From contig OZ252098.1 of NCBI GenBank assembly GCA_965248355.1, positions 2,912,001 through 2,976,000 of the forward strand: DNA of 64,000 bases, given 5' to 3'. This DNA is from Candidatus Latescibacterota bacterium. Its GTDB lineage: Bacteria > Latescibacterota > UBA2968 > UBA8231. The notes beneath the pieces were generated by a model that worked only from the letters and a program-made list of their open reading frames with translations, was not told where the DNA came from and searched no databases. Position numbers and translations under genes: made by a program. Numbering within the stretch: the stretch's first letter is position 1; each line of letters begins with the position of its first letter. Below, in pieces: positions 16,050 to 36,061 of this stretch.

Positions 16050-16089
16050 GGGCGGCTGCCCGGACTGCCCGGGGCCTCCCGGCGGCCTG

Positions 16090-16632
16090 TTGGCCCTCGC
16101 CCTGGCCGGGGGCCTGGTCGTCGTGGACGGTCCGCCCGGCTCCCTGCTGAACCGGCTGCCGCGGAGCCAGTGGCAGCAACTGCCCCGGGGCACCCCCGCC
16201 CCCGACTTCCAGCTGGCCGCGGTCGCAGGATCCGGACTGGAACTGGCCGACCTGAAGGGCCGGTCCTCGGCAGTCGTGTTCGTCACCACCACCTGCCGCT
16301 ACTGCAACGAGTTGAAGGCCAACCTGCTCGGCGCGGGGCTGCCGGACCTGGATGGGCGCCTGGTCTTCATCAACGGTCCCGACGACGGTCCGTCAGCAGA
16401 GCCGCCCGAGGACAGCGTCGAGGCGCGGATCCGCGACTTGTACCCCGTCCTTCAGGACACCACGGGAGAGACGTCGCTGGCGTACTACGCCGTCAGCGTG
16501 CCCACGGCCTACCGGCTCGACCCGGAGGGCACGGTGGCGGCGGCGGCCCGGGGCGTCGAGCCGGTCCAGGAACTGGTCGAGGAGCTGGCCCAGGCCGTGG
16601 CCTTGGACGAGGACTGCCGGTCGTGTCGCTAG
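16090..16632 (+). CDS. Membrane-anchored TlpA/peroxiredoxin-like thiol-disulfide oxidoreductase
   Basis: APDFQL...LADLKGR, TTTCRYC, VSVPTAYRLD (cis-Pro loop), C-terminal CRSC; start uncertain (in-frame TTG 16090; may be 5'-truncated). Confidence 0.7.
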   Translation: MALALAGGLVVVDGPPGSLLNRLPRSQWQQLPRGTPAPDFQLAAVAGSGLELADLKGRSSAVVFVTTTCRYCNELKANLLGAGLPDLDGRLVFINGPDDGPSAEPPEDSVEARIRDLYPVLQDTTGETSLAYYAVSVPTAYRLDPEGTVAAAARGVEPVQELVEELAQAVALDEDCRSCR

Positions 16633-20235: not shown

Positions 20236-20250
20236 CGGGTGCGTCGCTGA
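19321..20250 (+). CDS. Secreted CBM9/DOMON-like protein, paralog 4
   Basis: Closest to paralog 3; tail SAVEPSSWARIKAALRVRR. Confidence 0.7.
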   Translation: MRFGISCLLVLLATRVVAHIGDEIYPFLELLDEDLARIDLTDGSVEDWLEVIGEPSLTASDFYWLNYRYDPSELDFRIWLAWHQASNTVWVAMERFDDLYFNRYDGGGLSRMHLWDSSIAFLVDGDHTAGVYGEWIGAERDCETCTPERVLSHNRQAQRWMAIAEAPDGDILDYDGFSEWVVREPYALAGSGVLGHSPATTVVEFMVTPFDDLIYDDEDASEVSQLHPGKTIGFTMTTSDNDATGHQDGFGPKIQLTLGAEVLNLRVNASLFVDGLLVGAGEDPSRYDDVSAVEPSSWARIKAALRVRR

Positions 20251-20629: not shown

Positions 20630-20676
20630 TCGGGCCTGTGTGCAACGTGGCATCCCTCCAACCCCGTCGATGGGAT

Positions 20677-21912
20677 ATGTCGCAGCCAGGCGTCACCCGC
20701 CCTGTGCCATCCGCGCGTCCTCAGCCGCGCCGGCCGGGTCCCGGTCCCGCAACCGGCCGTGGCCCGGGCCGGGGCATCATCGTGCTCAACGGCAACTTCG
20801 CGCCGGCGTCGGCGGCGGGACCTTTCAAGTACGGAGCCGTGGCCTATGCCCTGAAGGCGGCGGAGGCCCTCGACCGCCAGGGGCTGTTGGCCGGATTCCT
20901 TCTCTACCGGCGCGACGAGCGGTTGCACCGGCCGCGTCTGGAGCCGGTGTCGTTGCTCGGGTATCCCGCCCTCGAGCTCGGCTTTCACTTCGACATGGAT
21001 CGCGAGGTGTTGGCCGCGGCCCTGGAGGACGCCCGCGCGCGCCTGAACCGCGGGTGCCTCTACTACCAGACCAACGTGCTGCTGCCCTTTCACCCGCCGG
21101 GGCGGCCCCTCGTCGTCACCCATCACGCGCCCTTCGTCGACCACGTGGTCGAGGTCATGGGGGACCGCCTGGCCGCGGAGGCCTTCGGGGCCGGGCGCGC
21201 CAAGCTGGAGCACCTGCGGCACAGCCAGCGCATCGGACTGGACTGCCTGGTCCGCAGCCGCGGTTCCGCCGTGGAGATCTCGTCGATCCAGGCCGACTAC
21301 CTGCGGATGCACGGTGTGGAGCCTCGGTTCATCCACAGGATCTACCCACCCCTGGAGTGGCCCGACGGGGTGAACGGCCTCTCGCGGGAGGGTGCGCGTC
21401 TGCGGCGCTTCATCGCCGAGGCCGGCCCCCGGTTGGTCCTGTGCACGGCCTGCTCGCGGCTGGACGCCTTCAAGAACGTCGAACTCCTCGTGCAGGCCGC
21501 GTTGCGGCTGGTGAGGTCGGGTCTCGACCTGCGCGTGCTGATCATCGGGGGCCCCCCTCGGGATGGGGAGCGGCGGCGCCTGGAGAGACTGGTGGACGAG
21601 GGCCTGGCTCACCGTTTCCGCTTTGCCCCCAGGGTCCCGCGCGAAGACCTGGCCCGGGTGCTCGATGACCTGGCCGGCCGCGGCCTCTTCGTCTGTCCTT
21701 CCCGCTACGAGACTTGTGGTCTGACCCCCCTGGAGGCGGCGGCGCGGGGGGTGTGCACGTTGGTGGCGGACACGCCCGACAGGGTCGAGGCCGCGATCGC
21801 TGGTTCCGCCCCGGCACCGGTTCTCGCCCACGGTGGAGGGCCTTGGAGCCGCCGTGCGCCGAGTCGCCGAGCGACGGTCGGACCCTTGTTCGACGATCGG
21901 AGTCCTCGATGA
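20677..21912 (+). CDS. Family 4 glycosyltransferase (probable frameshift near 21794)
   Basis: [25 protein letters not shown] (E-x7-E); more natural-looking C-terminus continues in the 21833 frame. Confidence 0.8.
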
Positions 21913-22069
21913 GAACGCACAGGCCGGCAGCCGCGCCTTCGACGAGCTTGTTCATCGCGGCGTGGCTCCGGATCACGGCACCGGAGGTTCGCGGCAGACG
22001 CCTGCCGCGCCGGCAGCGACCGGCCAGAGCTCTCTCCGGAGCCGTCCCATCCCGCCTGAGAAGTCCACC

Positions 22070-22705
22070 ATGCCCGGGGGCCGTTCCGCCCGCCTGGATC
22101 TGTCCACCCACTTCAACAACGCCGGCATCACCCCGGACGGGCGGCCGGGGGCCGGGGGCCTCGACGGGATGGGCACGGCCTTCCGCGCCGAGTGCCTCCC
22201 GGCCCCGGGGGGGACCATCGTCAGCGAGGAGACGCCCTTCCTCTTTCCGGGCCGGGACCGCGAGTCGAAGGACAACATCGCCTGCGAGGCCCAGGAGATC
22301 CCGTTGCCGCCGGGCGCCTGGGACGCCCTCCACGTGCTGGGCATGTGCGACTGGCGGGCCTTCGAGGAGCCCCTCCGGTTGAAGGCCCCCGACGGCACCT
22401 GCTTGGAGACGCGCCTGGGACTCAGCGACGCCCCGCGTTACCAGGGGCTTCAGTACGGAGAGAGCGTGGCTCTCTCGTGTCCACTGACGGCCCCCGATAC
22501 CTCGATTCCCCTTTCCTCCCTCATCGGGACCTCCCCGCCGGGAGCGGGTTACGAGATGAAGGAGACCCGCATCGAGGCGGGGATCTGGCACCAGGTGATC
22601 CACTTCCATGGGCCCCGGCCGCTATCGGGACTGGTGCTGCCGGACAACCCGTCCATGCACCTCTTCGCCTTGACCTTGGTCGCGGCGGACGAGGTCTCCC
22701 CATGA
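22070..22705 (+). CDS. Hypothetical beta-sandwich (carbohydrate-binding-like) protein; possibly the C-terminal domain of the upstream GT4
   Basis: LDLSTHFNNAGIT...DNIACEAQEIPLP...LHVLG...LPDNPSMHLFALTL; stop overlaps next start. Confidence 0.6.
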   Translation: MPGGRSARLDLSTHFNNAGITPDGRPGAGGLDGMGTAFRAECLPAPGGTIVSEETPFLFPGRDRESKDNIACEAQEIPLPPGAWDALHVLGMCDWRAFEEPLRLKAPDGTCLETRLGLSDAPRYQGLQYGESVALSCPLTAPDTSIPLSSLIGTSPPGAGYEMKETRIEAGIWHQVIHFHGPRPLSGLVLPDNPSMHLFALTLVAADEVSP

Positions 22706-23712
22706 AGAAGCGCATCGACGGTATTCCCTTCTGCACCAACCGGCACTACAACTGTGTCTACGTGGTGCTCGACAGCCTGCTGCGCTTCCACGGCCACGAG
22801 CCCACCGTGCCCTGCTTTTCCAATTGGGACTTCGTCTACTCCCGGGATGGCGGGCCGTTCGCCATCCACGGCCGCGCCATCCCCCTTCCCAGGATGCTCA
22901 ACGCCTTCGGGATCGGACTGCTCAACCGCGGCGCGGCGGACGGGGAAGCCGCGTGGAAGGCCGTGAGAACGCTGATAGACGCGGATACCCCGGTGGCCGT
23001 CGGCGTCGACGTCTTCGCCCTCGCCCGGGCCGGCCTCTACCCCCGCCTGCGCCATGCCGACCACCAGTACATCGCCGCCGGGTACGACGACGAGGCGGGT
23101 ACCGTCCACCTGATCGATCCCTCCCCCTGGCAGCCTTGTGCACGGGACCTCCCCCTCGGCCTGTTCCTCGCCAGTTGGGACATGAGCGAGTTCTCCGGGG
23201 TACGGGACCGGTACAACTGGACCTGGCTGGAGGCGCCGGCGCCACGTCCCACCTTGCGCCGCGGCCCCATGCAGGCCCTCCTGCGGCGCAACCTCCGGAG
23301 CATGTCGGCCTCCAGCGGCCAGGGCGGTCTCGTCCTGGGCCTGGAGGGTATCGGACAGCTCGCCGAGGATGCCGGGGCCTGGGCGGCATACGAGGAGCCC
23401 TTCCTCAAAAAGCACTTGCGGCGGTGCGCCGAGCTCCTGCTGGAGATCGCCGTGCTCCGGGAGGGGCACGGCCACTTCCTGCGCCACCTGGGCCAGCTCT
23501 TCGACCGTCCCGCGCTGGCCGGCCTCGGCGGGGAACTCGAGGCGATCTCGCAGGGCTGGTTCGTCGTGAAGAACCTGTGCCTCAAGGGCGCCCTCAAGGA
23601 GCCGGCGAGCCTCCTGCCCCGCATTCAGTCCCGGCTCCACGACATCGAGGCCCGCGAACGGAAAGCCCTGGCGGGGCTGGCAGCGGCGGTGGAAGCGCCG
23701 GCCCGGCTTTGA
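22702..23712 (+). CDS. BtrH N-terminal-like papain-fold protein (acyltransferase/peptidase)
   Basis: YNC (Cys), HQYIAAGYD (His), LIDP (Asp); helical C-terminal domain. Confidence 0.75.
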   Translation: MKKRIDGIPFCTNRHYNCVYVVLDSLLRFHGHEPTVPCFSNWDFVYSRDGGPFAIHGRAIPLPRMLNAFGIGLLNRGAADGEAAWKAVRTLIDADTPVAVGVDVFALARAGLYPRLRHADHQYIAAGYDDEAGTVHLIDPSPWQPCARDLPLGLFLASWDMSEFSGVRDRYNWTWLEAPAPRPTLRRGPMQALLRRNLRSMSASSGQGGLVLGLEGIGQLAEDAGAWAAYEEPFLKKHLRRCAELLLEIAVLREGHGHFLRHLGQLFDRPALAGLGGELEAISQGWFVVKNLCLKGALKEPASLLPRIQSRLHDIEARERKALAGLAAAVEAPARL

Positions 23713-23833
23713 AGTGTCACCTCCACGACGCATGGCTGACGCCGGACACACACAACTCGCCCGAGCCTCGACCGGGCCGCGCGGAGGCCGCAAGTCGTTG
23801 CCGTCCAGAACGCGCCGACCGCGCCGCCGGCCC

Positions 23834-23849
23834 TGGCACGGCCTTTGTA
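23834..23849 (+). promoter_or_regulatory. Putative sigma54 (-24/-12) promoter
   Basis: TGGCACG-GCCT-TTGTA, ~57 nt upstream of the second GT4. Confidence 0.55.
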
Positions 23850-23905
23850 TCGGACATGGGCGCCAGAGCATCCGCCCACCCACTCTCGCCGCGGAGACGC
23901 GCTGA

Positions 23906-25111
23906 ATGAACATCGGCCTGATCGGTCACGGCTTCCGGCCCATCGCCGGGGGCCTGGAGCGCCCGCTTCGGGACTGCGCCGCCGGCCTCGCCCGGCGCGG
24001 CTGCCGGGTCCGCGTGCTGTCCATCGTCGGAGAGGGGTGCCGGCTGCCGCGCGACGAGGTCCTGCACCCGCCCGGCGGCTCCCCCGTCCAGGTGCACCGG
24101 GCCGCGGTGCCGCGCCCGGCCGCCAACGGCGATCCTCTTGCCGAGCCGGAGATCCCGGCCAGCGCCTGCCGGGGGCTCGCCCCGCACTGGTGCTCGCTGC
24201 TGGCCGACGCCGACGTGGTCTGCACCTTCGGCGCTTCACCGGCCCTGGCCGGCGCCGAGGTCCGCGCGCGGCTCGGACTCCCCTTCATCGCCGTTCTCCC
24301 CGGTCTGCCCAGCCAGGCCGACGCCCGCTTCCAGGAGGTCCTGCGCTGCGGCGCCGATCTGTTCGTCGGCGTCTCCCGCTCCATGTGCCGGCGCGCCGAG
24401 GAGCGCTTCGGCCTGCGCATGATCCCGGTCTGCAACGGCGTCGATACCGGGTTCTTCCAGCCCGTAGCGGCCCCGGCCGCCGAGTCGGCCCTCGGCCGCT
24501 ACGAGGTGCTGCGCGGCCTCCCGGGCCCGCTGATCACCAGCCCCGCGCGGCTCGATCCGGGTAATGGGCTCGAGCTGCTGATCGAGGCCTTCGAGCTGGT
24601 CGTCTCCCTGCGCCCCGACACCAGTCTGCTGATCACGGGCCTCGGCAGCCTCCGCCATCACCCCCTGGGGAACTCCTACGCCGATTACCTGGCCGGCCTG
24701 GTGGAACTGAAGGAGCTGGGCGCCAAGGTGCGCTTCGGCCGCGGCGTGTTCGAGGCCCGGCACATGCCCGCTCTCTACTCGCGCTCCCACCTGTGCGTCC
24801 TGACCGGCGCCGGCGAGGGCTTCGGCCTCGAATGGGCCGAGTCGCTGGCCTGCGAGACACCGGTGGTGGCCACCCGCACCGAAGGCATGGCCGAACTCTT
24901 CGGCCACGGCACCGGAGGCCTCTTGGTCGACGGCCGCGATCCGGTGAAGGTGGCCCAGGGCATCCTCCCCCTGCTCGACGACGACGGCCTGCGGCGCCGC
25001 CTCGGCCGCAGCGGCCGCGAGCACGTCCGCCGCGCCTTCCCGCTGCAGGCGCAGGCCGACCGCTACCTCGAGCTGTTCACGTCCATCCGGGCCGCCCGCG
25101 CCGCCGCCTGA
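23906..25111 (+). CDS. Family 4 glycosyltransferase
   Basis: FRPIAGGLE, NGVDTGFF, ARLDPGNG, EGFGLEWAE (E-x7-E), TPVVAT. Confidence 0.88.
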   Translation: MNIGLIGHGFRPIAGGLERPLRDCAAGLARRGCRVRVLSIVGEGCRLPRDEVLHPPGGSPVQVHRAAVPRPAANGDPLAEPEIPASACRGLAPHWCSLLADADVVCTFGASPALAGAEVRARLGLPFIAVLPGLPSQADARFQEVLRCGADLFVGVSRSMCRRAEERFGLRMIPVCNGVDTGFFQPVAAPAAESALGRYEVLRGLPGPLITSPARLDPGNGLELLIEAFELVVSLRPDTSLLITGLGSLRHHPLGNSYADYLAGLVELKELGAKVRFGRGVFEARHMPALYSRSHLCVLTGAGEGFGLEWAESLACETPVVATRTEGMAELFGHGTGGLLVDGRDPVKVAQGILPLLDDDGLRRRLGRSGREHVRRAFPLQAQADRYLELFTSIRAARAAA

Positions 25112-25125
25112 GGAGACCGGAAAGG

Positions 25126-26559
25126 ATGCCTCAAATGCAGCCGGAGTTTCTCGAGTATCTCCATCTTCCCGACGACGGCACGGCCCTGCTGAAGCCCACC
25201 CTCGAGAGTCTGCTCGAGTTGGCCAGAGAAGAGGCCGGGGACGAGTTCCCGTCGATCCGGCAACGACTCGAGGACGCCCACGCCGCGCTCGGCGGCGATG
25301 CCCGGGCCGCCGCGAGTTCCTTCCAGGGGGTCCAGGCGGCATGGCCGAATCCCGCCGCTTCCATGGCGGCCGGCGTCGCCCTCGCCCTGGCGTCGGATTG
25401 GCGCGGCGCCCTGGAGGTCTTCTCCGCGAACGCCGACCTGCTCGAGGCGAGGGGCCTTCCCGAGGCGGCTCTGGGCTGCCGGCTGAACCAGGCCTACATG
25501 CACTCCGTTCTGGGCGACTCGTCCAGCGCCGAGTCGACCCTCGATCAAGTCGTGGGGGCCTCGAGGCTCGCCGGGAAGACCCGGCTGCTGGCAACCGGAC
25601 TCCACGCCAAGGCGGTCCTCCGGTTGCGTCACGGCCGTTTCCCGGAGGCCCGGCAGGAGTGTGAGAGGGCGATGGCGGAATGCCCCGGGGAGCCCGAGCT
25701 GGCCCAGGTCATGGGTACGCAGGGCGTTGCCTCCCAGGCCCTCGGAGAGCTCCCGCGGGCGGAGAAGGAGTTCAGGGCCTCCCTGTCGCTGGCCTCGGGG
25801 GCTTCGCCCTTAGCGGAGTTGCGGGCCTCGGTCAACCTGGCCGTGCTCTGCCAGCTCACGGCGCGCGGCACCGAGGCCCTGGACCTGCTCGCCGGGGCCA
25901 CGGCCATCGCCGAGCGGCAGGGGGACGTGCGGTTCCTCGCCAAGGTTCGGTTCCTGCGGGCCCTGCTGGCCTTCGCGGAGACCGGGGAGGAGGCCATCCC
26001 GGCCGCCCTCGACGGCGTCGAGCAGATGCGCATCCATGGCTACCGCAAGGGAGAGCTGGACTCCATTGCCATGGTGGTCCCGTGCCTCCTCGAGTGCGGC
26101 AAGGCCCTGGAAGCGGAGACCCTGGCCGCGTCGGCGGTGAGCACGGCGGAAGAAACCGGATACCTGGCCGGGCTCCTCGAAGCGATGTCCAGCGCCGCCC
26201 TGGTCCATCTCGCCGGCGCCGACCTCGAGCGCGCGAGGGAGATGGCTTGCCGCCTCCTTGAGAAGAGCGCCGCGGCGGAGCTGCCCATGATCGCCGTCAA
26301 GGCCCACCGGGTCCTGTCGGACGTGTCGCTGCAGGAGGGAGAGCCGGAAAGAGCCCTGGAGCACCTTCGACGGGCGGAGGGAGCGGCCGCGGAGATGGGG
26401 GCCCAGGTGCTGCAGTGCCACCTCATGGAGGGAGTGGCCGGCCTCCTCGAGATCTGCGGAAGAATCGACGAGGCCGAGGCGGAGAGAGCGGCCGCCCAGG
26501 CGCGGGCGCTCTCCATCGGAGTGGGGAGGACTACCGGAGTCGGGAACAACATCGAATGA
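25126..26559 (+). CDS. TPR-repeat (MalT-TPR-like) protein with no recognisable output domain
   Basis: Repeated Ala/Leu-rich helical TPR-like units (e.g. NLAVLCQLTARGTEALDLL). Confidence 0.7.
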   Translation: MPQMQPEFLEYLHLPDDGTALLKPTLESLLELAREEAGDEFPSIRQRLEDAHAALGGDARAAASSFQGVQAAWPNPAASMAAGVALALASDWRGALEVFSANADLLEARGLPEAALGCRLNQAYMHSVLGDSSSAESTLDQVVGASRLAGKTRLLATGLHAKAVLRLRHGRFPEARQECERAMAECPGEPELAQVMGTQGVASQALGELPRAEKEFRASLSLASGASPLAELRASVNLAVLCQLTARGTEALDLLAGATAIAERQGDVRFLAKVRFLRALLAFAETGEEAIPAALDGVEQMRIHGYRKGELDSIAMVVPCLLECGKALEAETLAASAVSTAEETGYLAGLLEAMSSAALVHLAGADLERAREMACRLLEKSAAAELPMIAVKAHRVLSDVSLQEGEPERALEHLRRAEGAAAEMGAQVLQCHLMEGVAGLLEICGRIDEAEAERAAAQARALSIGVGRTTGVGNNIE

Positions 26560-26608
26560 ACACGGGGGCATCTACGAGGGCGCTACATTCACCGGAAGGA
26601 GATCCATC

Positions 26609-26836
26609 ATGAACAGACTCATCAAGCCCCAGAAGCAGTCTTACACCGGCGAGGACGCCCAGGTCCTTGCTTATTCCGATGCCTGCGAGATAGCATGGCT
26701 CATGAACCTCTGCTCTGGCGGCATAGGCGCCGCAGTCTTGTTGGGCCTCGCCGTGCCGCCGGCCCTGGTCGCGTTCGGCGTGTCGTGCTTCATCATGTAC
26801 GTCATCACCTCGGCGGCGTGCAAGGGCTACATCTGA
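26609..26836 (+). CDS. RiPP/bacteriocin-like precursor peptide 1 (75 aa)
   Basis: GAAGGAG RBS; leader MNRLIKPQKQSYTGEDAQVLAY, 4-Cys hydrophobic core ending KGYI. Confidence 0.88.
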   Translation: MNRLIKPQKQSYTGEDAQVLAYSDACEIAWLMNLCSGGIGAAVLLGLAVPPALVAFGVSCFIMYVITSAACKGYI

Positions 26837-26950
26837 TCCATTCCTCCCCGGCCCTTCTTTCAGTCGTGGACCGTCCTGATGAGCGGGACGAACAACGAAT
26901 GAACAGGGGGCATCTACGTGGGCGCTACATTCACCGGAAGGAGATCCATC

Positions 26951-27166
26951 ATGAACAGACTCAACAAGCCCCGAAAGCAGTCCTACACGGGCGATGACAC
27001 TCAGGTCGTTGCCTACTCCCGTCTCTGCGAGATGACGTGGACGACCGCCTTCTGCACAAGCTCCCTGCCCTTCCTCGGCGGCGTGCATCCCTTCCTGGTC
27101 GCGGTGGGAGTGAGCTGCTCCATCTTCTCCATGGTCTGTTCGGCGGTGAGCAACGGTTACATCTGA
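26951..27166 (+). CDS. RiPP/bacteriocin-like precursor peptide 2 (71 aa)
   Basis: Same RBS/5' block; leader MNRLNKPRKQSYTGDDTQVVAY, core ending NGYI. Confidence 0.88.
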   Translation: MNRLNKPRKQSYTGDDTQVVAYSRLCEMTWTTAFCTSSLPFLGGVHPFLVAVGVSCSIFSMVCSAVSNGYI

Positions 27167-27387
27167 TCCCGTCACGCCGAGACTTGCGGCATAGACGCGA
27201 ACGTCGATAAGACAAACCCCTTAGCGCCCCGTAGATGCCCCCATGATCGAATCGTCTCGTCCCTGCCATGATCCCCATCCATGCCACCGGTTCTTTTGGA
27301 GTCGGGGCCCGTGACGGGGGGACGAACAACGAATTGAACAGGGGGCATCTACGTGGGCGCTACATTCACATCGGAAGGAGATCCATC

Positions 27388-27609
27388 ATGAGCAAACTCA
27401 TCAAGCCGCAGAAGCAGTCCTACACCGGCGAGGACTCCCAGGTCCTTGCCTACTCCCTTGCCTGCGAGATTGCGTGGGCCACCCAGTACTGCGTGGCCTT
27501 GGTAGCGGTTGCTCTCATTTTTGGCGGGCCGGCTGGGGTGGCCGGGGTTGGCATCCTGTGTGTCGTCATCTACGTCGTCTCCACGTCGGCGTGCCACGGT
27601 TACATCTGA
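27388..27609 (+). CDS. RiPP/bacteriocin-like precursor peptide 3 (73 aa)
   Basis: Same RBS/5' block; leader MSKLIKPQKQSYTGEDSQVLAY, core ending HGYI. Confidence 0.88.
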   Translation: MSKLIKPQKQSYTGEDSQVLAYSLACEIAWATQYCVALVAVALIFGGPAGVAGVGILCVVIYVVSTSACHGYI

Positions 27610-27683
27610 CCTTCTCCCGAGAATTGCACCGTGCCTAGTACTCACTGACCAACCAAACCCCTTAGCGCCCCGTAGATGCCCCC

Positions 27684-29348
27684 ATGATCACAACATTCCT
27701 GTCGTCCTTGCCCCGGGTTTCGGAAGCGCTCTCCTACGCGGTCCGGGTCGAGGCCCGCACCCTGCGCCACGAGGCCCGGTCGAAGCCGGGAGACTTCTGG
27801 CCTGCCGTCGTACTCCTGGCCGCGGCCGGAGGGTTCTTCTGGCTGGGTCTCTGGTTATCACTCCACATCACCAAGGGCCTTCTCGGCGACGGGAACCCCG
27901 AGCTGGCCCTGGCCCTGGCCTCCGTGTTTCTCGCCTCCTACGCCTTCCTGTGGTTCTGCTTCGCCGTCGGCTTCGGCGGAGAGATCGTACCGATCTCCCG
28001 CCTGGAGAAGCTCGCCCAGCTTCGATGGACCCCGGGGCAGGCCTACGCGGCGGGCCTGGTGATGGCCGCCTTCAAGCCCCTGCCCCTGTTCTTCTCCCTG
28101 AGCTTCCTGACGATCGGGCTCACGCTCTTCCCGCCGGCCGGCGCCGCGTCCGTGCTGGCCTCGGGCCTGGCCACGGGCGTGACCGCTCTCGGCATCGTCG
28201 CCTTGACCCAGGGCGCCCGCTGCGCCATCGAGCTGGCGTCCTGGAAGGGCGCGCTGAGGACACTCGCCCGCGTCCTCGCGGGCGGACTGTTCGTGGCCCT
28301 GAGCCTGTTGCTCGCCTGGTCCCTGGTCGGCGGCGACTGGATCGAGCGGATTCGCGGGATTCCGGGCTCCTGGATCGAGATGGCGCCCACAAGCCTGCTG
28401 GCCCGGGCCTATCACCTGGCGGGGGAGGGACGCCTCGCGGACCTGCCGGGGCCCCTGGCCCTGCTCGGCGCCTTCGCGGCGGCCGGCTTCCTCTTCGGCT
28501 GGCGCCTCACCCGCCGGCGGGTCTTCCTCGCGGGCGGGTCCCGCCTGGCCCCGGCCGGCCCGCGCGACCGGATCCCGGGTCTGGCGCGGTGGCTCGGGCG
28601 GGTCCTGCCGCCGCCCTATCCGAACTTGGTGGTCCGCGAGGTGCTGGCCGCGATTCGCTGGAAGCAGCTCTGGATACAGGCGGCGTTGGCCGCGATGTTC
28701 GCATGCGGCGCTGCCATCACTCCTGCTCTCGCCCTCGCGGCCGGCGACGGACGCGCCAGTTTTCCCTACCCCTGGCAGATGCATGGCCTGGCGGTCGGCT
28801 TTCTCGCCGTCTTCCAGAGCGGGCTCGCGACCAACCTGTTCTCGAGAGACGGCAGGGCCGCCTGCGAGTACCTGCTTCTGCCCCTTGCCGAGCGGGAGAT
28901 CCTGGCGAGCAAGAACATCGCCTTCGCGATCATCCAGTACGCGGTGACGGCCCTCTGCGCCCCTGTCCTCCTCTTCGTGCTCTGGTTCCACGATCTCCTC
29001 GGACCCGGGCTCCAGGCCCTCGGGGCCGTGGTCCTGGCCCCCTTGGCGTTTGTCATCAGCGGCAACTATCTCTCGATCCTCAACCCCGCCAAGTCGCCCG
29101 GATCGAAGAAAGACCCGAGAGGCCATGTCCCGCGGAACAGCGGCCTCCTCCAGCTACTGCTGGGGACTCTCCTCGGCGCCGCGACGGCCCTGTATTTCTC
29201 GATCGATTCCGGGTACCTGCGCTACGCGGCGGCGGCCTTCGGGGTCCTGGCCGCGGCGGGGCTGCCGGCGGGGTACGTCCTCGCCCTGCGCCACCAGACC
29301 CGGCTGCTCCGGCAACGGCGCCTCGCCGTGGCGGAAGTGTTCTCGTAA
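27684..29348 (+). CDS. Polytopic ABC-2-type permease (export/immunity)
   Basis: ~12 TM helices; NLFSRDG..YLLLPL..ILASKN motif; precedes ABC ATPase. Confidence 0.75.
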   Translation: MITTFLSSLPRVSEALSYAVRVEARTLRHEARSKPGDFWPAVVLLAAAGGFFWLGLWLSLHITKGLLGDGNPELALALASVFLASYAFLWFCFAVGFGGEIVPISRLEKLAQLRWTPGQAYAAGLVMAAFKPLPLFFSLSFLTIGLTLFPPAGAASVLASGLATGVTALGIVALTQGARCAIELASWKGALRTLARVLAGGLFVALSLLLAWSLVGGDWIERIRGIPGSWIEMAPTSLLARAYHLAGEGRLADLPGPLALLGAFAAAGFLFGWRLTRRRVFLAGGSRLAPAGPRDRIPGLARWLGRVLPPPYPNLVVREVLAAIRWKQLWIQAALAAMFACGAAITPALALAAGDGRASFPYPWQMHGLAVGFLAVFQSGLATNLFSRDGRAACEYLLLPLAEREILASKNIAFAIIQYAVTALCAPVLLFVLWFHDLLGPGLQALGAVVLAPLAFVISGNYLSILNPAKSPGSKKDPRGHVPRNSGLLQLLLGTLLGAATALYFSIDSGYLRYAAAAFGVLAAAGLPAGYVLALRHQTRLLRQRRLAVAEVFS

Positions 29349-29366: not shown

Positions 29367-30134
29367 ATGGAACCGACCGTGGAGCTGGAAGACCTGACCA
29401 AGCGTTACCGGTCCACCGTGGCCGTCCGTTCCCTCTCCCTGAAGGTGGAGCCGGGGGCGATCCTCGGTCTCGTGGGGCCGAACGGCGCCGGCAAGACGAC
29501 GCTGCTGAACATGTTGGCCGGGCTCCTCGAGCCGAGCGAGGGCTCGGTGCGCCTCTTCGGACGCACCTACGCCGAGGCCGGCAACGACATCCGGGCCCTC
29601 ACCGGCGTCATGCGGGACGATCCGGGGCTCTACGAGAGCCTCACCGGATCGGAGCACCTGAGCTTCACCGGCTCGGCGTACGGCCTCGATCCTGCAGAGG
29701 TCGCGGAGCGGTCCCGCGAGGTGCTGGCGTTCATGGACCTGGAGCAGGCCGCCGGCGAGACCGCCGCCACCTACTCGGCGGGCATGAGGAAGAAGCTGGC
29801 CCTGGCCTGCATCCTGCTGCACCGGCCCCGGATGGTCCTCCTCGACGAGCCCTTCGCCGCCCTGGACCCCGAAGCCGCCCTCCGGGTGGAGGAGCTGCTC
29901 CGCCGGCTGTCGGCCGGCGGCGCCACCGTGGTCCTCAGCTCCCACGTCCTCGAGCGCGTCGACCGGCTCTGCTCCGAGCTGGCCTTCATCAACAAGGGAG
30001 AGCTGATCCTGCGGGGCCCGCCCGACGAGCTGCGCGCCCGGGGGGCCGAGGGCAAGAAGGCCGGGAGTCTCGAGGAGCTGTACATGGATCTCGTCGCCCC
30101 GGAAGGGGAGCGGCGGGGGCTCTCGTGGTTGTGA
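29367..30134 (+). CDS. ABC transporter ATP-binding protein
   Basis: GPNGAGKTT, YSAGMRKK, LDEP, SSH. Confidence 0.92.
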   Translation: MEPTVELEDLTKRYRSTVAVRSLSLKVEPGAILGLVGPNGAGKTTLLNMLAGLLEPSEGSVRLFGRTYAEAGNDIRALTGVMRDDPGLYESLTGSEHLSFTGSAYGLDPAEVAERSREVLAFMDLEQAAGETAATYSAGMRKKLALACILLHRPRMVLLDEPFAALDPEAALRVEELLRRLSAGGATVVLSSHVLERVDRLCSELAFINKGELILRGPPDELRARGAEGKKAGSLEELYMDLVAPEGERRGLSWL

Positions 30135-31885
30135 GCCTGCCGGGCTGGCTCTCCTTTCGGCGACGGAAGCCGGCGGGGGGGTCCCTCCTCCCCTTTCTCT
30201 GGACCTTCCTCAGGCCCTACCGGCTGCGCGCGGCCGAGGCCTTCGCCGCCATGGTCCTGGCGGCGGCCCTCACCGTGCCCCTGCCGCTGGTGACGATCTA
30301 CCTCGTGGACGAGGTCTTCGCGGCCGGCTCGCGGAACACCCTCCACGTCGTCTGCGCCGGGGTGCTGGCCGTCTCCATCCTGAGCACGCTCCTGAGCCTG
30401 CTGCAGAGCTACCTGCTCACCGTCTTCGCGCGGCGCGTGTTCTTCGACATGGAGGTCACCCTCACCCGGAGACTGCTCGCGCAGTCGGCGGCCTACTTCC
30501 GAAAGGCGAGCCCCGGCTATCTCGCCACCCGGGCCAGCGACGACGTGCGCCAGCTCGGGGCCCTCATGGCCGGGACCTGGATCCAGGCCATGAACTCGGC
30601 CTTCGTGCTCGTCGTGGGCGCCGCGGTGATGACCGCCCTGAGTCCCGGGCTGGCCGCGATCCTGCTGGCCCACGTGCCCGTCCTGGCCGTGGTCAGCGTG
30701 CTCGTGGGTCAGAGGGTCCACGACCTCAACGCCGCGGTCCAGGAGCGCCGGGGGCAGACCCAGGCGGTGCGCATCGAGTCGCTGGAGAACATCACGGTGG
30801 TCAAAGCCTTCGGCGCCGAGCGCCGGCAGGTCGGACTGATCGCCAACAGGCTGCACCAGGAGCTCGACGCGGGCCTGGCCCGCGATGTCCGAGTGCTGGC
30901 GCTCTCCGGTGTCCAGAGCCTGGTGCACGCCGCCGGCTTTCTCGTCCTGCTGTGGGTGGGCGGGCTCGAGGTGATGAACGGCCAGCTGTCGCTCGGACAA
31001 CTCCTGGCGCTCAACTCCCTTCTCGCCCTCGTGCTCACGCCGACGGTACAGCTGTCCAACGTCTACATGAGCGTCAAGATGGCCCTCGGGATCCTGCAGC
31101 GGGTGCGCGACTTCGCCGGGCTTCCCCTGCACAGGGAGCGCGCCGGCAAGCCGCTCCTCGACATCGGTCCGGGCCGCGTGGAGTTCGAGAAGGTCTCCTT
31201 CCGGTTGCCGGGAGGGGGCGCCGTTCTGCACGACGTGTCGGCCACCTTCCCGGCCGGCCGGATCACCGCGGTGGTGGGCGGGACCGGAATGGGCAAGAGC
31301 ACGCTTGTGCGGCTCCTGCTCCAGCTGGAGGCCCCGTCGCGGGGATCGATCCTGATCGACGGCCGGGACTCGAGCGAATACGACCCCCGGAGCATCCGGG
31401 CCCACATCGGCTACGTCGAGCAGGAGGTGCACCTGTTCTCGGCGACGATCCGCCAGAACATCCTCTACGGCCGTCCCAGGGCCGCCGGAGACGACCTGGC
31501 CTGGGCGATCGAGATATCCGACTGCGCCGAGTTCCTCTCCCGGTTCCCGGACGGGATGGACACGCGCATCGGCGCCAACGGCGTCGAGCTCTCCAGGGGC
31601 CAGAAGCAGCGAGTCTGCCTGGCCCGGGCCATGGTCCGCAGACCGAGGATCCTCGTTCTCGACGAGACCACCGCCTCCCTGGACCCCGAGACCGAACAGA
31701 CCGTGATCCGCGCCCTGACGCAGGCCGGCGAGGGACGGACGACCGTCTACGTGAGCCATCGCCTCGCCTCGCTGGATTTCGCCGACCGGGTCGTGGTCAT
31801 GAACGGCGGGCGGGTGACGGGGGAAGGCAGTTTCCAGGACTGGGTCTCCGGAGGCGGGCCGGTCGCCGCCAGTGCCGGCCCATGA
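30125..31885 (+). CDS. Fused ABC exporter (TMD+NBD) without a C39 peptidase domain
   Basis: 6-TM domain then GGTGMGKST, LSRGQKQR, LDETT. Confidence 0.9.
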   Translation: MVVSLPGWLSFRRRKPAGGSLLPFLWTFLRPYRLRAAEAFAAMVLAAALTVPLPLVTIYLVDEVFAAGSRNTLHVVCAGVLAVSILSTLLSLLQSYLLTVFARRVFFDMEVTLTRRLLAQSAAYFRKASPGYLATRASDDVRQLGALMAGTWIQAMNSAFVLVVGAAVMTALSPGLAAILLAHVPVLAVVSVLVGQRVHDLNAAVQERRGQTQAVRIESLENITVVKAFGAERRQVGLIANRLHQELDAGLARDVRVLALSGVQSLVHAAGFLVLLWVGGLEVMNGQLSLGQLLALNSLLALVLTPTVQLSNVYMSVKMALGILQRVRDFAGLPLHRERAGKPLLDIGPGRVEFEKVSFRLPGGGAVLHDVSATFPAGRITAVVGGTGMGKSTLVRLLLQLEAPSRGSILIDGRDSSEYDPRSIRAHIGYVEQEVHLFSATIRQNILYGRPRAAGDDLAWAIEISDCAEFLSRFPDGMDTRIGANGVELSRGQKQRVCLARAMVRRPRILVLDETTASLDPETEQTVIRALTQAGEGRTTVYVSHRLASLDFADRVVVMNGGRVTGEGSFQDWVSGGGPVAASAGP

Positions 31886-32325
31886 GGATTCCCTCCCGCA
31901 TCGAGTGGACCGGGGCAGCGGTCCTGATCTGCGCGGCCGCCTGCTCCCTGCTCCTGCTGATGGGGCTGGTCCTCATCGACGTGGAGCGGGGGGTCCGGGT
32001 CTCGGGGACGGTGACGGGAGGGGATGGTACCTGGCGGCTCGAGGGCCCCGTGTCGAGCCGGAGTCTCGGGCTCCTGGGCGACGCCCGGTACGTCCTCGCC
32101 GCGAGGGGGAACCGCCGGATCCTGTTGGGAGAAGTGCGGGCGGTCGACGCGCGGTTCCGCCCAGGCGCGGGGGAAGTCCTCGCCGCCGTGGAGTTCGAGT
32201 CCACGGCCAACGGCGACGGCCGGTCCCATCCCGTGGAAGAGGGCCCCGCGAGCCTTTTCCTGGCCACACGGCCTTCGGGGCCCTTGCTGCTCGCCCTCCT
32301 CGAAAAGGTGAGCCCCGCGAGGTAA
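31882..32325 (+). CDS. Small membrane-anchored protein (truncated HlyD/adaptor-like)
   Basis: N-terminal TM then 'DVERGVRVSGTV'; ATGA overlap with exporter. Confidence 0.5.
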   Translation: MRIPSRIEWTGAAVLICAAACSLLLLMGLVLIDVERGVRVSGTVTGGDGTWRLEGPVSSRSLGLLGDARYVLAARGNRRILLGEVRAVDARFRPGAGEVLAAVEFESTANGDGRSHPVEEGPASLFLATRPSGPLLLALLEKVSPAR

Positions 32326-32415: not shown

Positions 32416-33189
32416 ATGAAGAGATGGGCAGAGAGAGGCACGAAGGAGGAGGAGAGGGCGCACCTGGTGGACCGCGTGCGCCTCGTGGTGGCGTCGCCGC
32501 GGCAGGCTCTCGGCGCCATCCTCGAGAGCCGCCCCTGGGTGGACGTATTCGTGGTGCTGAGCCTGGGGAGCGCGCTGTTCTCGTGCCTCTCCCTGCACCT
32601 GGCGGGGGACCAACTGGAGCTCGTGCCGGCCGGACTGCTCACCGAGTCCCAGCAGGATGTCGTCGCCGTCCTGAGGTTCGCGGCGATCGTCCTGCTTGCG
32701 TTCCCGGTCACCCTCGTCAGCCTCCTGGCGCCCGCGTTCTTCCTGTGGCTGCTGGTGCAGATGTTCGAGGAATGGAGCGACTTCCGGTCGATCCTGGCCG
32801 TCGTCGCCCACGCGAGTCTGGTGTTGCTGTTCTCCCAGGCGGCGGACACCATCCTGCTCGCCCTGAGATTGCAGGGGCAAGAGGCCGTGGGCCTCTCGGA
32901 GATGGGAGCCCAGGCCGATCTGGGCCTGCTCTTCGACCTCGGCGGGGCCCCCCTTCTCGCGGTCCTCCTGTCGTACACCAGCCCTTTCAAGATCTGGTTC
33001 TATGGACTCCTCGTCCTCGGCATCGGCCGGGCCTGCCGGCTGACCTGGCCGCGCAGCGCCGGCGTCGTGGCGCTCCTCCTCGTCGCCAGCCTCGCGCTGA
33101 GAGTGAGCCTCACCTTCCTGACGGATTCGGCCTCCGAGTCCCTCACCGCCGACTCCGACTGCCCCGCCTGCGAGCTGCTGCCACACTGA
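32416..33189 (+). CDS. Yip1-domain membrane protein with C-terminal CxxC
   Basis: VVASPRQAL...FRSILAVVAHA...SPFKIWFYGLLVLGI; ends DSDCPACELLPH. Confidence 0.8.
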   Translation: MKRWAERGTKEEERAHLVDRVRLVVASPRQALGAILESRPWVDVFVVLSLGSALFSCLSLHLAGDQLELVPAGLLTESQQDVVAVLRFAAIVLLAFPVTLVSLLAPAFFLWLLVQMFEEWSDFRSILAVVAHASLVLLFSQAADTILLALRLQGQEAVGLSEMGAQADLGLLFDLGGAPLLAVLLSYTSPFKIWFYGLLVLGIGRACRLTWPRSAGVVALLLVASLALRVSLTFLTDSASESLTADSDCPACELLPH

Positions 33190-35114
33190 TGGCCAATCTC
33201 TCCTTTGCGGACCTGACGGGACGTGGGGTGCGCGTCGCCATCATCGACAGCGGCCTCGACACCTCCCGCCCCGACCTCGCGAGGAACGTCGTCGGAGGCG
33301 TCTCGATCCAAGTCGGGGACGACGGGACCATTCGGCGGAGCGAGGACTACGCCGACGAGGCGGGACACGGCACCGCCTGCGCCGGGATCCTCCGCGGCCT
33401 GGCTCCCGAGGTGGAGCTGTCGATCATCCGGATCTTCGACGCCCTCCTCTCCGCCCGGGCCTCGGTCCTGGAGGCCGCCCTCGAGCACGCCGGCGAGGAG
33501 GGCGCTCACGTCATCAACGCGAGCCTCGGAGTCACCGACACCGCGGTCGCCGGCCGTCTCCGGGATGTCTGCCGCAGCCTTCAGCGCGCCGGCATCTGCA
33601 TCGTCTCCGCTCAACCCCGCGGCGGCGAGCGCAGCTTTCCCGCGGAGTTCGAGGAGGTGATCGGCGTCGAGGACGGGGACGTCCGCGGCAAGTACGGGTA
33701 CCACTACCGCGCCGGCCGGCCCATCGAATGCGTCGCCAAGGGAGGCCCCCGCCGGGTCGTCTGGCTGAACGGGGAAGAGGCGCTGAAGAGCGGCGCGAGC
33801 TACGCCGCACCCCATATCAGCGGCATCGTGGCGCTCCTGAAGGAACGGTACCCAACGGCCGGCCTCGAGGAGATGCGGAGGCTGCTCGAGAGCAACGCCA
33901 CCAGCCCCCCGAGCGCGAGTCCCCGGGGACGGGGGAAGAAAGCCCGGAGCCCCGGGGGAAAGGGGCGCCCCGGCCGGGTGGATCGGCGGCCCTCCTCGCC
34001 GTGGATGCGCCGCGTCGTCCTGTACCCCTACAGCAAGGAGCTCCACGGCCTCGTCCGCTTTCGGGATCTCACGGGCCTGGAGGTGGTGGGCGTGGCCGAT
34101 CCGGCGGGCCGGCGCCTGGTGGGCAAGGACGCGGGAGAAGCGATCGGCGCGGAACCCGCGGGTGTCATGATCGGGCCTGCCCTCGCCGGCGAGCTGGGCG
34201 CCGGTGACACGGTGATCCTGGGCTATCTCGACGAGCTCGGACGGATCGCGAAACGCGACCTGCTGAGGGATGCCATCGAAGCCGCCCTCGCCGGCAACCG
34301 CAACGTCTACAGCCTGAATGCGGTGCCCGAGTTGAGGTATGGAGACTTGTACGCCGAGAGCCGCCGCAGGGGGCTCCGGTTGGCCTATCCCTCGGTCTCC
34401 ATCGCCGAGGTGGAGAGGACGATCCGGGAGAAGTCGACCCTGGGCAAGATCGCCGTGCCCGTCATCGGCTTCTTCGGGACGAGCTCCCAGCAGGGAAAGT
34501 TCACCGCCCAGCTGGCCTTGCGCCGCCATCTGCTGAAGCAGGGCTACCGGGTCGGCCAGCTCGGCACGGAGCACCAGTCCGGGCTCTTCGGTTTCGACTA
34601 CACCTTCCCCATGGGGTACGCCTCGCCCCTCGAACTGCCCCTTCAGCGCTTCGAGCCCTTCCTGGACGCCAAGCTCAGGGAGATCCATCACGACAAGAAG
34701 CCCGATGTGCTCATCGTCGGGTCCCAGTCGGGCACCATCCCCTTCGCCATCGACGAGCCCCGGAGCCATCACTTCGGGAGTCTCGCCTTCCTGTTGGGCG
34801 CCAAACCCGATGTCTGCGTGCTGGCGGTCAACTGCATGGACCCGGAGGAGTACGTGAGGCACACCATCGACGCCATCCGGATCGTCGGGAAGGCCCGGAC
34901 GATCTGTCTCCTGCTCAGCGACAAGCAGAGGCGCGTGGAGTCGGCCCATGGCCACACCTGGATGAGTTCCAGGGTCCTGAAGGGCGCGGCGCTGCAGGAG
35001 GCGCTGAAGGACCTGGAGGACCGGTTCGGCCTTCCCGCGGTATGCCCCGCCGACCCCGGCGGTCAACGCCGCCTCGCAGAGACCGTGGAGACGGCGCTCT
35101 CGGCGGCCGCCTGA
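33189..35114 (+). CDS. S8 peptidase fused to a DUF1611/TIGR04066-like P-loop domain (peptide maturation protein)
   Basis: IIDSG / GHGTACAG / SGASYAAPH triad; C-terminal PVIGFFGTSSQQGKFT...GYRVGQLGTE...VGSQSG. Confidence 0.8.
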   Translation: MANLSFADLTGRGVRVAIIDSGLDTSRPDLARNVVGGVSIQVGDDGTIRRSEDYADEAGHGTACAGILRGLAPEVELSIIRIFDALLSARASVLEAALEHAGEEGAHVINASLGVTDTAVAGRLRDVCRSLQRAGICIVSAQPRGGERSFPAEFEEVIGVEDGDVRGKYGYHYRAGRPIECVAKGGPRRVVWLNGEEALKSGASYAAPHISGIVALLKERYPTAGLEEMRRLLESNATSPPSASPRGRGKKARSPGGKGRPGRVDRRPSSPWMRRVVLYPYSKELHGLVRFRDLTGLEVVGVADPAGRRLVGKDAGEAIGAEPAGVMIGPALAGELGAGDTVILGYLDELGRIAKRDLLRDAIEAALAGNRNVYSLNAVPELRYGDLYAESRRRGLRLAYPSVSIAEVERTIREKSTLGKIAVPVIGFFGTSSQQGKFTAQLALRRHLLKQGYRVGQLGTEHQSGLFGFDYTFPMGYASPLELPLQRFEPFLDAKLREIHHDKKPDVLIVGSQSGTIPFAIDEPRSHHFGSLAFLLGAKPDVCVLAVNCMDPEEYVRHTIDAIRIVGKARTICLLLSDKQRRVESAHGHTWMSSRVLKGAALQEALKDLEDRFGLPAVCPADPGGQRRLAETVETALSAAA

Positions 35115-35116
35115 AG

Positions 35117-36061
35117 ATGACCGGACCCATGGGAGCGATGAGGAAGGCGATGCTCGCCGCGCTCGCGGCGGGCCTGTTCGTGCCGGGATGCCGGGGCGGC
35201 CAGGAAAGCTCCACGGTGCCGGGGCACCCGGTCGTCCGGGCCGTCCGTGGAGAGCTGACCGACAGGCTCTCGGCCGATGGCCGTCTCGAGTTCGCCGAGA
35301 TCGTGGACGTCAGCTCCACTCTCTCGGGCACCGTGACCTGGATCGCCGGGGAGGGTGGGATCGTGAAGGAGGGTGACCGGGTCGCCACCGTGCGGGGGCG
35401 GCAGGGACGGACCGCCAACGTCCCGGCGACCCGGGGAGGCACCGTGGTGAAGCGGCACGTGGACGCGGGAGAGAGCGTCCTCTCCGGTTTCGAGGGCGGG
35501 ACCGCGCTGGTATCCATCGCCTCCACGGAGAGCTTCATCGCCCGCTGCGACGTGGCCGAAGTGGACGTCGAGTCCTGGAGCCGGGACGGGCCGGCGGAAA
35601 TCACCGTGCAGGCCTTCCCCGAAGACCGCCTCGAGGGACGGGTGAAGCGGATTTCGAAGATGGGCCGCAGGAGCCCGGGCAGCCACATGATCACCTTTGA
35701 AGCGGTGATCGGCCTGCAAGAGACCACCGACCGGCTGCGCCACAACATGTCCTGTGTCGTGGAGGTTCCGACGTACGTGCAGAGGGACGTGATCTCCCTG
35801 CCGTTGCAGGCCGTCGTGCTCGAGGGCTTCGAAGCCGCCGCCTGGAGAGCCCGCGGTCCGGTGGGAGCCCGCGCCTGGTTGTGCTCGGCGGAGGACCCCG
35901 GCGGCGGAGGCGCGGCGCCGGCTTGCCCCCGGGACCACTTCAGGCAAGTGGGGCTGAGGATCTCGCGAGGCACGGAGAGCCGCGTCGTGGTCCTGTCCGG
36001 GCTCCGGGCCGGGGATCTCGTCGCCGCCGATGCAGCCGCCCTCGAGGAGGAGGCGGAGTGA
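35117..36061 (+). CDS. Efflux periplasmic adaptor (MacA-like), putative lipoprotein
   Basis: Lipobox-like VPGC, lipoyl-type repeats, LSGLRAGDLV terminus. Confidence 0.8.
   Translation: MTGPMGAMRKAMLAALAAGLFVPGCRGGQESSTVPGHPVVRAVRGELTDRLSADGRLEFAEIVDVSSTLSGTVTWIAGEGGIVKEGDRVATVRGRQGRTANVPATRGGTVVKRHVDAGESVLSGFEGGTALVSIASTESFIARCDVAEVDVESWSRDGPAEITVQAFPEDRLEGRVKRISKMGRRSPGSHMITFEAVIGLQETTDRLRHNMSCVVEVPTYVQRDVISLPLQAVVLEGFEAAAWRARGPVGARAWLCSAEDPGGGGAAPACPRDHFRQVGLRISRGTESRVVVLSGLRAGDLVAADAAALEEEAE

Follow-up and report, generated by a model that had tools for sequence, protein, structure and literature searches.

The 64,000-nt stretch of contig OZ252098.1 analysed here (assembly GCA_965248355.1, positions 2,912,001 to 2,976,000 of the forward strand; hereafter the window) contains three tandem plus-strand genes, P1 (26609-26836), P2 (26951-27166) and P3 (27388-27609), which probably encode the precursors of a leader-dependent secreted peptide system. 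The predicted proteins are 75, 71 and 73 aa long, respectively. Each of them consists of a hydrophilic, near-invariant 22-aa leader with AY as its last residues, followed by a divergent, uncharged and strongly hydrophobic core of 53, 49 or 51 aa with four Cys residues. These are located at positions 26, 35, 60 and 71 in P1, at 26, 35, 56 and 63 in P2, and at 26, 35, 58 and 69 in P3; the last two Cys are thus spaced as Cx10C in P1 and P3, whereas P2 has the pattern Cx8C...Cx6C. The three cores share the motif S-x-x-C-E-x-x-W-x4-C, a central Gly/Pro stretch and a terminal GYI. A Shine-Dalgarno sequence (GGAAGGAGAT) is found 7-8 nt before the ATG start of each gene, and the GC content of the array is 59-60%, compared with about 70% in the flanks. 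A first-pass annotation of this DNA had described three tandem open reading frames (ORFs) with these leader and core lengths, together with the core motif, the Gly/Pro turn, the GYI end and the shifted Cys spacing of P2; all of this was borne out on inspection of the ORFs and their sequences. The three-gene observation is confirmed, far beyond chance. The 17 homologous clusters, the tandem arrays at syntenic loci and the purifying selection on the leader codons of the plus strand indicate that this is a real coding family.

The homologue clusters were obtained by a word-indexed search of 5.8 billion proteins; they comprise proteins of 66-75 aa, none of them named, with E-values down to 1e-41. 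A profile search of all 1.84 billion representatives gave 10 matches at E ≤0.001, including nine family members; the tenth is an unrelated 853-aa repeat protein and was not accepted as a member. No Pfam family was matched by P1-P3 at E ≤0.01, and the NCBIfam search of the peptides returned a single chance-level match and no meaningful one. The source genome (5.5 Mb, one contig) has only the three copies P1-P3. Three to four tandem copies are present in three of nine other genomes of the genus, and none was found in 31 genomes of other genera. The peptide family is real but tiny: apart from metagenomes, it was seen in a single Gemmatimonadaceae genus only, each occurrence being a tandem of 3-4 copies within a conserved gene cluster, and its distribution within the genus is accessory. 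In two relatives, one copy each (L016_2, at 9156-9362 of L016; L017_2, at 3224-3430 of L017) joins a normal leader to a tail that is rich in Pro and Arg and not hydrophobic; these copies look like frameshifted, decaying genes.

Selection on the leader and the core was compared by the Nei-Gojobori method (NG86) in 13 orthologous or paralogous pairs. The ratio of nonsynonymous to synonymous substitution rates (dN/dS) of the leader is 0.05-0.40 in 11 pairs (0.75 and 1.35 in the other two), whereas that of the core ranges from 0.84 to 2.25 and reaches 1 or more in 10 of the 13 pairs. For nine flanking genes compared with L015 and L016, two loci of the same genus, dN/dS is 0.20-0.77 over 17 comparisons; their proteins are 72-94% identical, and the best peptide matches are 57-71% identical. 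The leader dS among the P1-P3 paralogues is 0.37-0.64, and the constancy of the leader therefore reflects purifying selection, not recent gene conversion. In the contigs of four metagenome runs, the single-base differences of the cores number 19 nonsynonymous against 2 synonymous, with five of them in an indel-affected stretch; in the leaders there are 2 of each kind. The claim of a constant leader joined to a diversifying core was supported by the dN/dS comparison; the core evolution is relaxed-to-diversifying, short of proven positive selection.

The AlphaFold2 model of the peptide (20-sequence alignment) has helices at residues 15-44 and 51-72 and a loop at 45-50, with a mean predicted local distance difference test score (pLDDT) of 81.5. 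This helix-loop-helix agrees with the helix-turn-helix hairpin that had been expected from the sequence. In a fold search with the model, none of the 26 listed matches reached E ≤0.001, and the matches were generic helical hairpins; the ESM Atlas returned weak matches only (score ≤0.85). Over the family members, the cores have a grand average of hydropathy (GRAVY) of 0.6-2.2 and a net charge of -3 to +1, whereas the GRAVY of the leaders is about -0.6 to -1.3. The first-pass annotation held the number of Cys constant at four, which is true of P1-P3 and not of the family: of the 35 unique members, four core Cys are found in 24 and two in 6, the remaining 5 being degenerate or truncated.

The four-Cys members fall into four spacing classes, Cx8C...Cx10C (14 members), Cx8C...Cx6C (3), Cx6C...Cx6C (5) and Cx9C...Cx10C (2). 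The two intra-helix spacings are equal within 2 residues in all 24, and the C1/C4 midpoint lies no more than one residue from that of C2/C3, also in 24 of 24; in P1 both midpoints coincide with the predicted loop centre. With such matching midpoints in a hairpin, only nested pairing is geometrically possible. Moreover, C1 and C4 were jointly lost in four sequences of one clade, and C2 and C3 were jointly lost in P0021. These paired losses seem to fit nested disulfides C1-C4/C2-C3.

The peptide genes are also bracketed by inverted repeats. An invariant element of about 21 nt precedes every peptide gene in four genomes (that of the window and three relatives), and its reverse complement occurs after most of the peptide genes; in the window it follows P2 and P3, not P1. 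The 5' arms on the plus strand are located at 26564-26585 (in the 5' untranslated region of P1), 26906-26927 and 27341-27362. The 3' arms, 27222-27242 and 27663-27683, lie within two plus-strand copies of a 36-nt direct repeat. Copy 1 (27213-27248), after P2, additionally holds a remnant of the start of the 554-aa gene that follows the array; copy 2 (27654-27689), after P3, abuts the ATG (27684) of this gene. In 11 aligned units, 19 stem pairs are invariant and the single bulged base is the variable one. One stem pair changed from T-A to T-G, which is tolerated in plus-strand RNA only, and the terminal pair alternates between A-T, G-C and G-T, with two mismatches. The P3 unit forms the long-range stem in both the minimum free energy and the centroid structures (z = -3.69). 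Because the 19 pairs are invariant, covariation cannot separate RNA pairing from sequence-specific recognition; as a guess, the stem might be an RNase III-type processing or stabilising element. A promoter scan around the array found no sigma-70-like site, and the only match of an Rfam scan was sub-threshold and at chance level. Three terminator-like sites (two in P1, one in P3) were taken as chance, since all of them lie inside peptide coding sequence.

The spacers of the array (26884-26905, 27318-27340 and 27243-27290) contain remnants of the 3' end of the upstream tetratricopeptide repeat (TPR) gene and the first codons of the 554-aa gene, which indicates that the units arose by tandem duplication of the whole unit. 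Changes in copy number are found in nature. For example, a metagenome contig (run X11) lacks P3, its junction across the 36-nt direct repeat linking 27212 with 27654, and contigs of two other runs (X8 and X9) contain an extra unit junction (27249/26886). The array copy number thus varies among natural populations.

All genes of the surrounding cluster are on the plus strand, and their order is syntenic in L015 and L016. The TPR protein gene (25147-26559, start codon not fixed) is directly upstream of P1 and is syntenic in near and distant loci. After P3 follow the 554-aa polytopic membrane protein (27684-29348), which has a weak ABC2_membrane_5 match (E 0.037) and is probably an ABC-2-type permease; an ATP-binding cassette (ABC) ATPase of the DrrA-like type (29367-30134), which also resembles lantibiotic-protection ATPases, below their cut-offs; an MsbA/HlyB-like ABC exporter (30125-31885) with an ABC_membrane domain (from residue 40) and an ABC_tran domain and no C39 peptidase domain; and a 147-aa single-pass membrane protein of unknown family (31882-32325), which is conserved in distant loci. 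The next genes encode a Yip1/YknW-like membrane protein (32416-33189; YknW equivalog 33 bits, cut-off 110), a 641-aa fusion of an S8 subtilase with a TIGR04066/DUF1611 DgcN-like P-loop domain (33189-35114), an HlyD/MacA-like membrane fusion protein (35042-36061), two MacB/FtsX-type permeases (35881-37281 and 37288-38511) and the ABC ATPase of the MacB-type pump (38495-39208). The cluster ends with an acyl carrier protein (ACP) gene (39175-39471) with a DSI attachment motif. The Pfam matches include all parts of a four-component pump, namely a Yip1-type protein, a membrane fusion protein, an FtsX/MacB permease and an ABC ATPase; the architecture is that of the YknWXYZ/MacAB type, short of proven orthology. 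Upstream of the TPR gene, 20638-25111 encodes a GT1 glycosyltransferase, an unknown ORF, a BtrH_N/DUF4872 protein and a GT4 glycosyltransferase, which are possible cluster members by synteny within the genus only.

Several other ORFs of the window were considered. A radical SAM protein (14841-16049) was rejected as a maturase because it belongs to the PA0069 family. The stretch 15976-17675 encodes a ResA-like, membrane-anchored protein of the thioredoxin fold, which carries a CxxC motif, and then a membrane protein resembling Peptidase_A24. Within the genus both keep their synteny with the cluster; that they take part in forming disulfides is possible, though unsupported. The Peptidase_A24-like ORF (16641-17675) and a Glu at core position 5 had prompted the idea of prepilin-type processing. 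A Tyr, not a Gly, precedes the hydrophobic part, and there is no Gly at -1 and no G|F/M motif; both this processing and a type IV pilin-like protein with a class III signal peptide were rejected. Two paralogous ORFs without family matches (18172-19101, 309 aa; 19237-20250, 337 aa) have homologues of about 35% identity near fusion loci in two other genera (L041 and L051), and may belong to the fusion system, judging by this proximity. The unknown ORFs of 340 aa in distant loci had no detectable relation to them and were discarded as kin. An IS3-type two-ORF transposase (HTH_Tnp_1, then an rve integrase core) is located at 41691-42855, about 2.2 kb past the ACP gene.

The S8 domain of the protease fusion starts at the catalytic Asp region (triad D20, H60 and S204, invariant in 42 homologues), without signal peptide or propeptide, and is predicted to be cytoplasmic; its best NCBIfam match is QhpE (125 bits, cut-off 165). 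For the C-terminal domain, the match is to TIGR04066 ('peptide maturation system protein'), with E 1.2e-31 and 110 bits over 334 of the 361 model positions, where the cut-off is 200. An AlphaFold2 model of this DUF1611 domain (31 sequences, pLDDT 88.1) has as its best structural matches TM0796 (2g0t), the N-acetyltransferase DgcN (7xrj, E 1.3e-11) and the DUF1611 protein 2obn, with E-values from 1e-12 to 1e-10, and the P-loop GTSSQQGKFT is invariant in the homologues of the domain.

At least 415 full-length homologues of the fusion were found at E ≤1e-10 among 8000 candidates scored. The fusion occurs in 57 of the 121 Gemmatimonadota genomes sampled, and a single genome has as many as 8 matches; the protease-transporter gene set is widespread but unstudied. 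Among 27 distant loci, an ACP gene directly follows the fusion in 23 (the retrieved sequence of the other 4 ended before that point), and an ABC exporter is upstream of it in 22. Four distant loci match the architecture of the window, with TPR, permeases, ATPase, exporter, 147-aa protein, Yip1, fusion, HlyD and MacB; the additions in such window-like loci are a thioredoxin-fold redoxin, a GT28_C glycosyltransferase and a MauE/DoxX protein. The GT28_C gene follows the ACP gene in L042 and L043. Another subtype (L056) has an AraC-type response regulator, HlyD, the exporter, a precursor, TPR, a CPBP/Rce1-like protein and a GNAT-like protein.

Leader-bearing ORFs preceded by Shine-Dalgarno sequences were found beside the fusion in 10 of the 27 distant loci, with at least five unrelated cargo classes. 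The leaders share the motif K/R-L-I/V-K-P/R/K-x-K/R-x-x-Y, then 5-8 residues and V/I-x-A-Y; the remainder of the proteins is unrelated. The cargoes include Gly/Ala-rich peptides of 78-89 aa with one early and one C-terminal Cys, and partly acidic proteins of 119-140 aa. A profile of the window and distant precursors recovered its own inputs and one further genome only (6 of 121); the wider leader set was therefore taken from regular-expression scans of partial loci, a catalogue that is non-exhaustive and may include false positives. In three of the distant cargoes (L040 2296-2565, L043 3049-3285 and L045 3272-3526), a C-terminal Cys is combined with one Cys near the core start; this suggests a possible end-to-end link, or a modification of the terminal Cys.

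The likeness of the leaders among unrelated cargoes stops at AY, which suggests that the leader is a tag of the machinery and that AY marks the boundary between leader and core. The cleavage near AY|S proposed in the first-pass annotation agrees with this, as the leaders are alike up to AY and divergent after it. Subtilisins prefer an aromatic residue at subsite P1 and a hydrophobic one at subsite P4, and pro-subtilisin cuts itself after a sequence ending in A-Y.

The composition of the cluster raises the question of whether the peptides are modified as well as cut. They might be true RiPPs (ribosomally synthesised peptides that are modified post-translationally), in which, after the S8 cut, the DUF1611/DgcN-like domain and the ACP acylate the new N-terminal amine ('cut and cap') and glycosyltransferases may decorate Ser, Thr or Cys. 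This would extend the secretion model developed below, and it is held tentatively, at less than an even chance. The TIGR04066 match, the resemblance to DgcN with the invariant P-loop, the DSI motif and the constant position of the ACP after the fusion are in its favour; so are the BtrH_N-type and GT1/GT4 genes upstream and the GT28_C genes of L042 and L043. The Firmicute TIGR04066 clusters are also regarded as peptide-modification clusters in the available portions of two reports (PMC4573289, PMC10731318). Within the window itself, however, the ACP matched generic ACP models only, with no TIGR04069 match at E ≤0.001, and an enzyme for loading acyl groups onto the ACP was not found. TIGR04066 has no known chemistry, the P-loop may mean an NTPase role instead, and the glycosyltransferase genes are linked by synteny alone, within the genus only. 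ACP-dependent acyl transfer to the cargo is a reasonable idea on the present models.

The explanation that we consider best, with a probability slightly on the favourable side of even, is that P1-P3 are paralogous precursors of secreted, bacteriocin-like peptides, which would be leader-cleaved, exported, disulfide-stapled and membrane-active, and possibly further modified. All steps of this pathway are drawn from gene context and analogy. The conserved hydrophilic leader would serve as the recognition tag of the dedicated machinery, and the cytoplasmic, propeptide-less S8 domain of the fusion would cut at or just after AY, as QhpE does on QhpC. The C39-less ABC exporter would then carry the core across the inner membrane. 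In the periplasm, nested disulfides (C1-C4 and C2-C3) would staple an uncharged hydrophobic hairpin of 44-53 aa, which would act on competitor membranes. The ABC-2-type pump (554-aa permease and ATPase) and the YknWXYZ/MacAB-like pump would expel the peptide, for self-protection and/or outer-membrane export. Diversification of the core, together with gain and loss of cassettes, generates variants. Among the distant loci, the redoxin and MauE/DoxX genes of some and the CPBP/Rce1-like gene of one subtype, being of kinds tied to disulfides and bacteriocins, speak for this explanation.

One genome of the genus bears on this model from another side. In G007 (locus L039, 10083-18001), all cluster genes between that of the 554-aa membrane protein and that of the ACP, these two included, are kept at 75-91% identity, and there is no peptide gene. 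The 3' repeat arm is retained, and DNA of 51-60% GC takes the place of the TPR gene and every peptide gene; it encodes an AAA_21 ATPase and a UvrD/PD-(D/E)XK helicase-nuclease, and appears to be defence-island-like. By its gene content, G007 could be an immune non-producer.

Several observations weigh against the secretion model. G007 has the machinery without the peptides, so the machinery is not strictly tied to peptides of the P1-P3 type. No dedicated thiol oxidoreductase is present inside the core cluster (a redoxin is located 10 kb upstream, and the MauE of the genome is 1.2 Mb away), and no outer-membrane factor was identified. The nested C1-C4/C2-C3 pairing, which the first-pass annotation had already proposed, holds as far as the matched spacings in 24 of 24 members and the paired losses are concerned, but is contradicted by L015_4/P0017, which retains C1 and C2 only; the co-loss events number only two, one of them a single clade. 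In most members C1 and C2 are also at i and i+9, on opposite faces of an ideal helix. As to diversification, NG86 is noisy on short GC3-biased genes and may inflate dN/dS, and the nonsynonymous excess of 14:2 outside the indel stretch is alone not significant. Finally, the cores are uncharged and hydrophobic like transmembrane hairpins, unlike most cationic bacteriocins, and the peptides could stay in the membrane of the producer.

The last point leads to a different explanation, in which P1-P3 are resident two-pass inner-membrane proteins of the producer, for example serving the adjacent ABC pumps as baits or as subunits with an accessory or regulatory role, and the 'leader' is a cytoplasmic interaction tail. 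Their GRAVY of 0.6-2.2, the charge near zero and the two segments of about 25 residues flanking a Pro/Gly loop would suit such proteins; the genes are directly before the permease gene, and among the best matches by structure, which are weak and have E >1 throughout, there are small membrane subunits. Housekeeping subunits, however, rarely show core dN/dS values near or above 1 with partners at 0.2-0.65, and rarely vary in copy number between strains. A tag shared with unrelated, partly acidic, soluble-looking cargo of 119-140 aa beside the same protease would also be rare among them, and G007 has the pumps without the peptides. This explanation is considered unlikely. Even less probable is that the peptides are secreted signals, such as pheromones or kin-recognition tags, whose variable cores give strain specificity. 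Such signals might be expected from a diversifying core, a constant leader and several alleles per strain, and a response regulator is present in the distant subtype L056; yet the cluster of the window has no sensor kinase or regulator, and peptides so long and extremely hydrophobic are atypical as signals. The two efflux systems present are of toxin-protection types, as far as the consulted portion of PMC4887032 describes them.

The secretion model was compared with known systems. The spacing Cx6C...Cx6C is that of the glycocins, for which GT2 is the defining type of glycosyltransferase. If the predicted hairpin and its putative nested disulfides hold, the peptides would resemble glycocins in both; one subclass also has the spacing Cx6C...Cx6C. 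In the accessible part of PMC12457901, sublancin 168, glycocin F and thermoglycocin are described as helix-loop-helix peptides with two nested disulfides, encoded in clusters with a glycosyltransferase, thioredoxin-like proteins and an ABC exporter. The cluster, by contrast, has no GT2/SunS-type enzyme, as the nearby glycosyltransferases match Glycos_transf_1, GT4 and Glyco_trans_1_4 only; there is no C39-ABC transporter, and the leader ends in AY without a GG/GA/GS motif. The gap between C2 and C3 is also far longer (20-24 residues), the cores are transmembrane-like, and the host phylum is Gram-negative. The class II bacteriocins and class IIa microcins are likewise small, leader-bearing, Gly/Ala-rich, hydrophobic tandem peptides with ABC export, and weak look-alikes in Bacteriocin_IIc clusters were seen in the ESM Atlas (scores 0.80-0.82), which is a lead only. 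A double-glycine class II bacteriocin (Bacteriocin_IIc, PF10439) was rejected, as there is no GG/GA motif, C39 domain or Pfam match.

The Firmicute Cys-rich-peptide clusters (e.g. SacP23) contain a TIGR04068 radical SAM protein, TIGR04066, a TIGR04069 ACP-like protein, a subtilase and an ABC transporter, according to the available sections of PMC4573289 and PMC10731318. Of these types, the window has a subtilase and an ABC exporter beside a precursor with Cys, together with a domain resembling TIGR04066 and a carrier protein that matches generic ACP models; however, no TIGR04068 protein was found above cut-off genome-wide (best 84 bits against 500, far from the window), the protease and the TIGR04066 domain are fused, the TIGR04066 score is below its cut-off, and the precursors are unrelated in sequence. 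The cluster can thus be set apart, by its gene content, from the glycocins (glycosyltransferase type, C39 transporter and leader type) and from the Firmicute clusters (radical SAM).

QhpE is a cytoplasmic subtilisin-like protease that removes the N-terminal leader of QhpC, a Cys-rich small protein, before export by the efflux-type ABC transporter QhpF (PMC7876137, in the portion at hand). The S8 domain has QhpE as its best NCBIfam match, but below the cut-off. Moreover, in contrast to the quinohemoprotein amine dehydrogenase system, QhpD, QhpG and dehydrogenase subunits are absent, and a hydrophobic hairpin takes the place of an enzyme subunit as the cargo. The scanned neighbours included no gene of the qhpA, B, D or G type. 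YknWXYZ is a four-part efflux pump that protects Bacillus from its own hydrophobic SDP toxin, as stated in the available text of PMC4887032. The window shares the Yip1-type YknW, the membrane fusion protein, the MacB/FtsX permease and the ATPase with it; whereas the YknW match is weak (33 against 110 bits), the peptides are unrelated to SdpC, and the pump genes flank a protease fusion in a diderm.

A broader proposal takes the leader with its AY end as an address tag. It would belong to a new RiPP-like system, spread through the whole phylum, in which the fusion, as the hallmark enzyme, would cut the leader and at once modify the cargo with its dedicated ACP, for example by N-terminal acylation, and which would serve many unrelated cargo classes. 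P1-P3 would then be the class of stapled membrane-inserting hairpins, a diderm counterpart of the glycocin fold at transmembrane length. This proposal is rather doubtful, and is put forward with greater reserve than the cut-and-cap idea on which it builds. The cluster is best placed among the leader-dependent secreted peptide systems, and that it forms a new RiPP-like class is plausible. No description of the system in this form was found in the portions available of the literature on Gemmatimonadota RiPPs, DUF1611 and TIGR04066/TIGR04068. The processing and export cluster, the leader superfamily and the bracketing inverted repeats are additions to what the first-pass annotation had noticed.

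The Gemmatimonadota are abundant in soils and sediments and seldom cultured. For these bacteria, a testable set is now available. It consists of a short conserved leader, a putative site of cleavage, and the protease/DUF1611 fusion enzyme with its ACP, present in about half of the sampled genomes of the phylum; the peptides themselves form a natural series of hairpins whose Cys spacings vary in a matched way. If the proposed pathway is true, the TIGR04066/DUF1611 'peptide maturation' proteins would have a function assigned to them, and a very hydrophobic, disulfide-stapled peptide family would be added from diderm bacteria.

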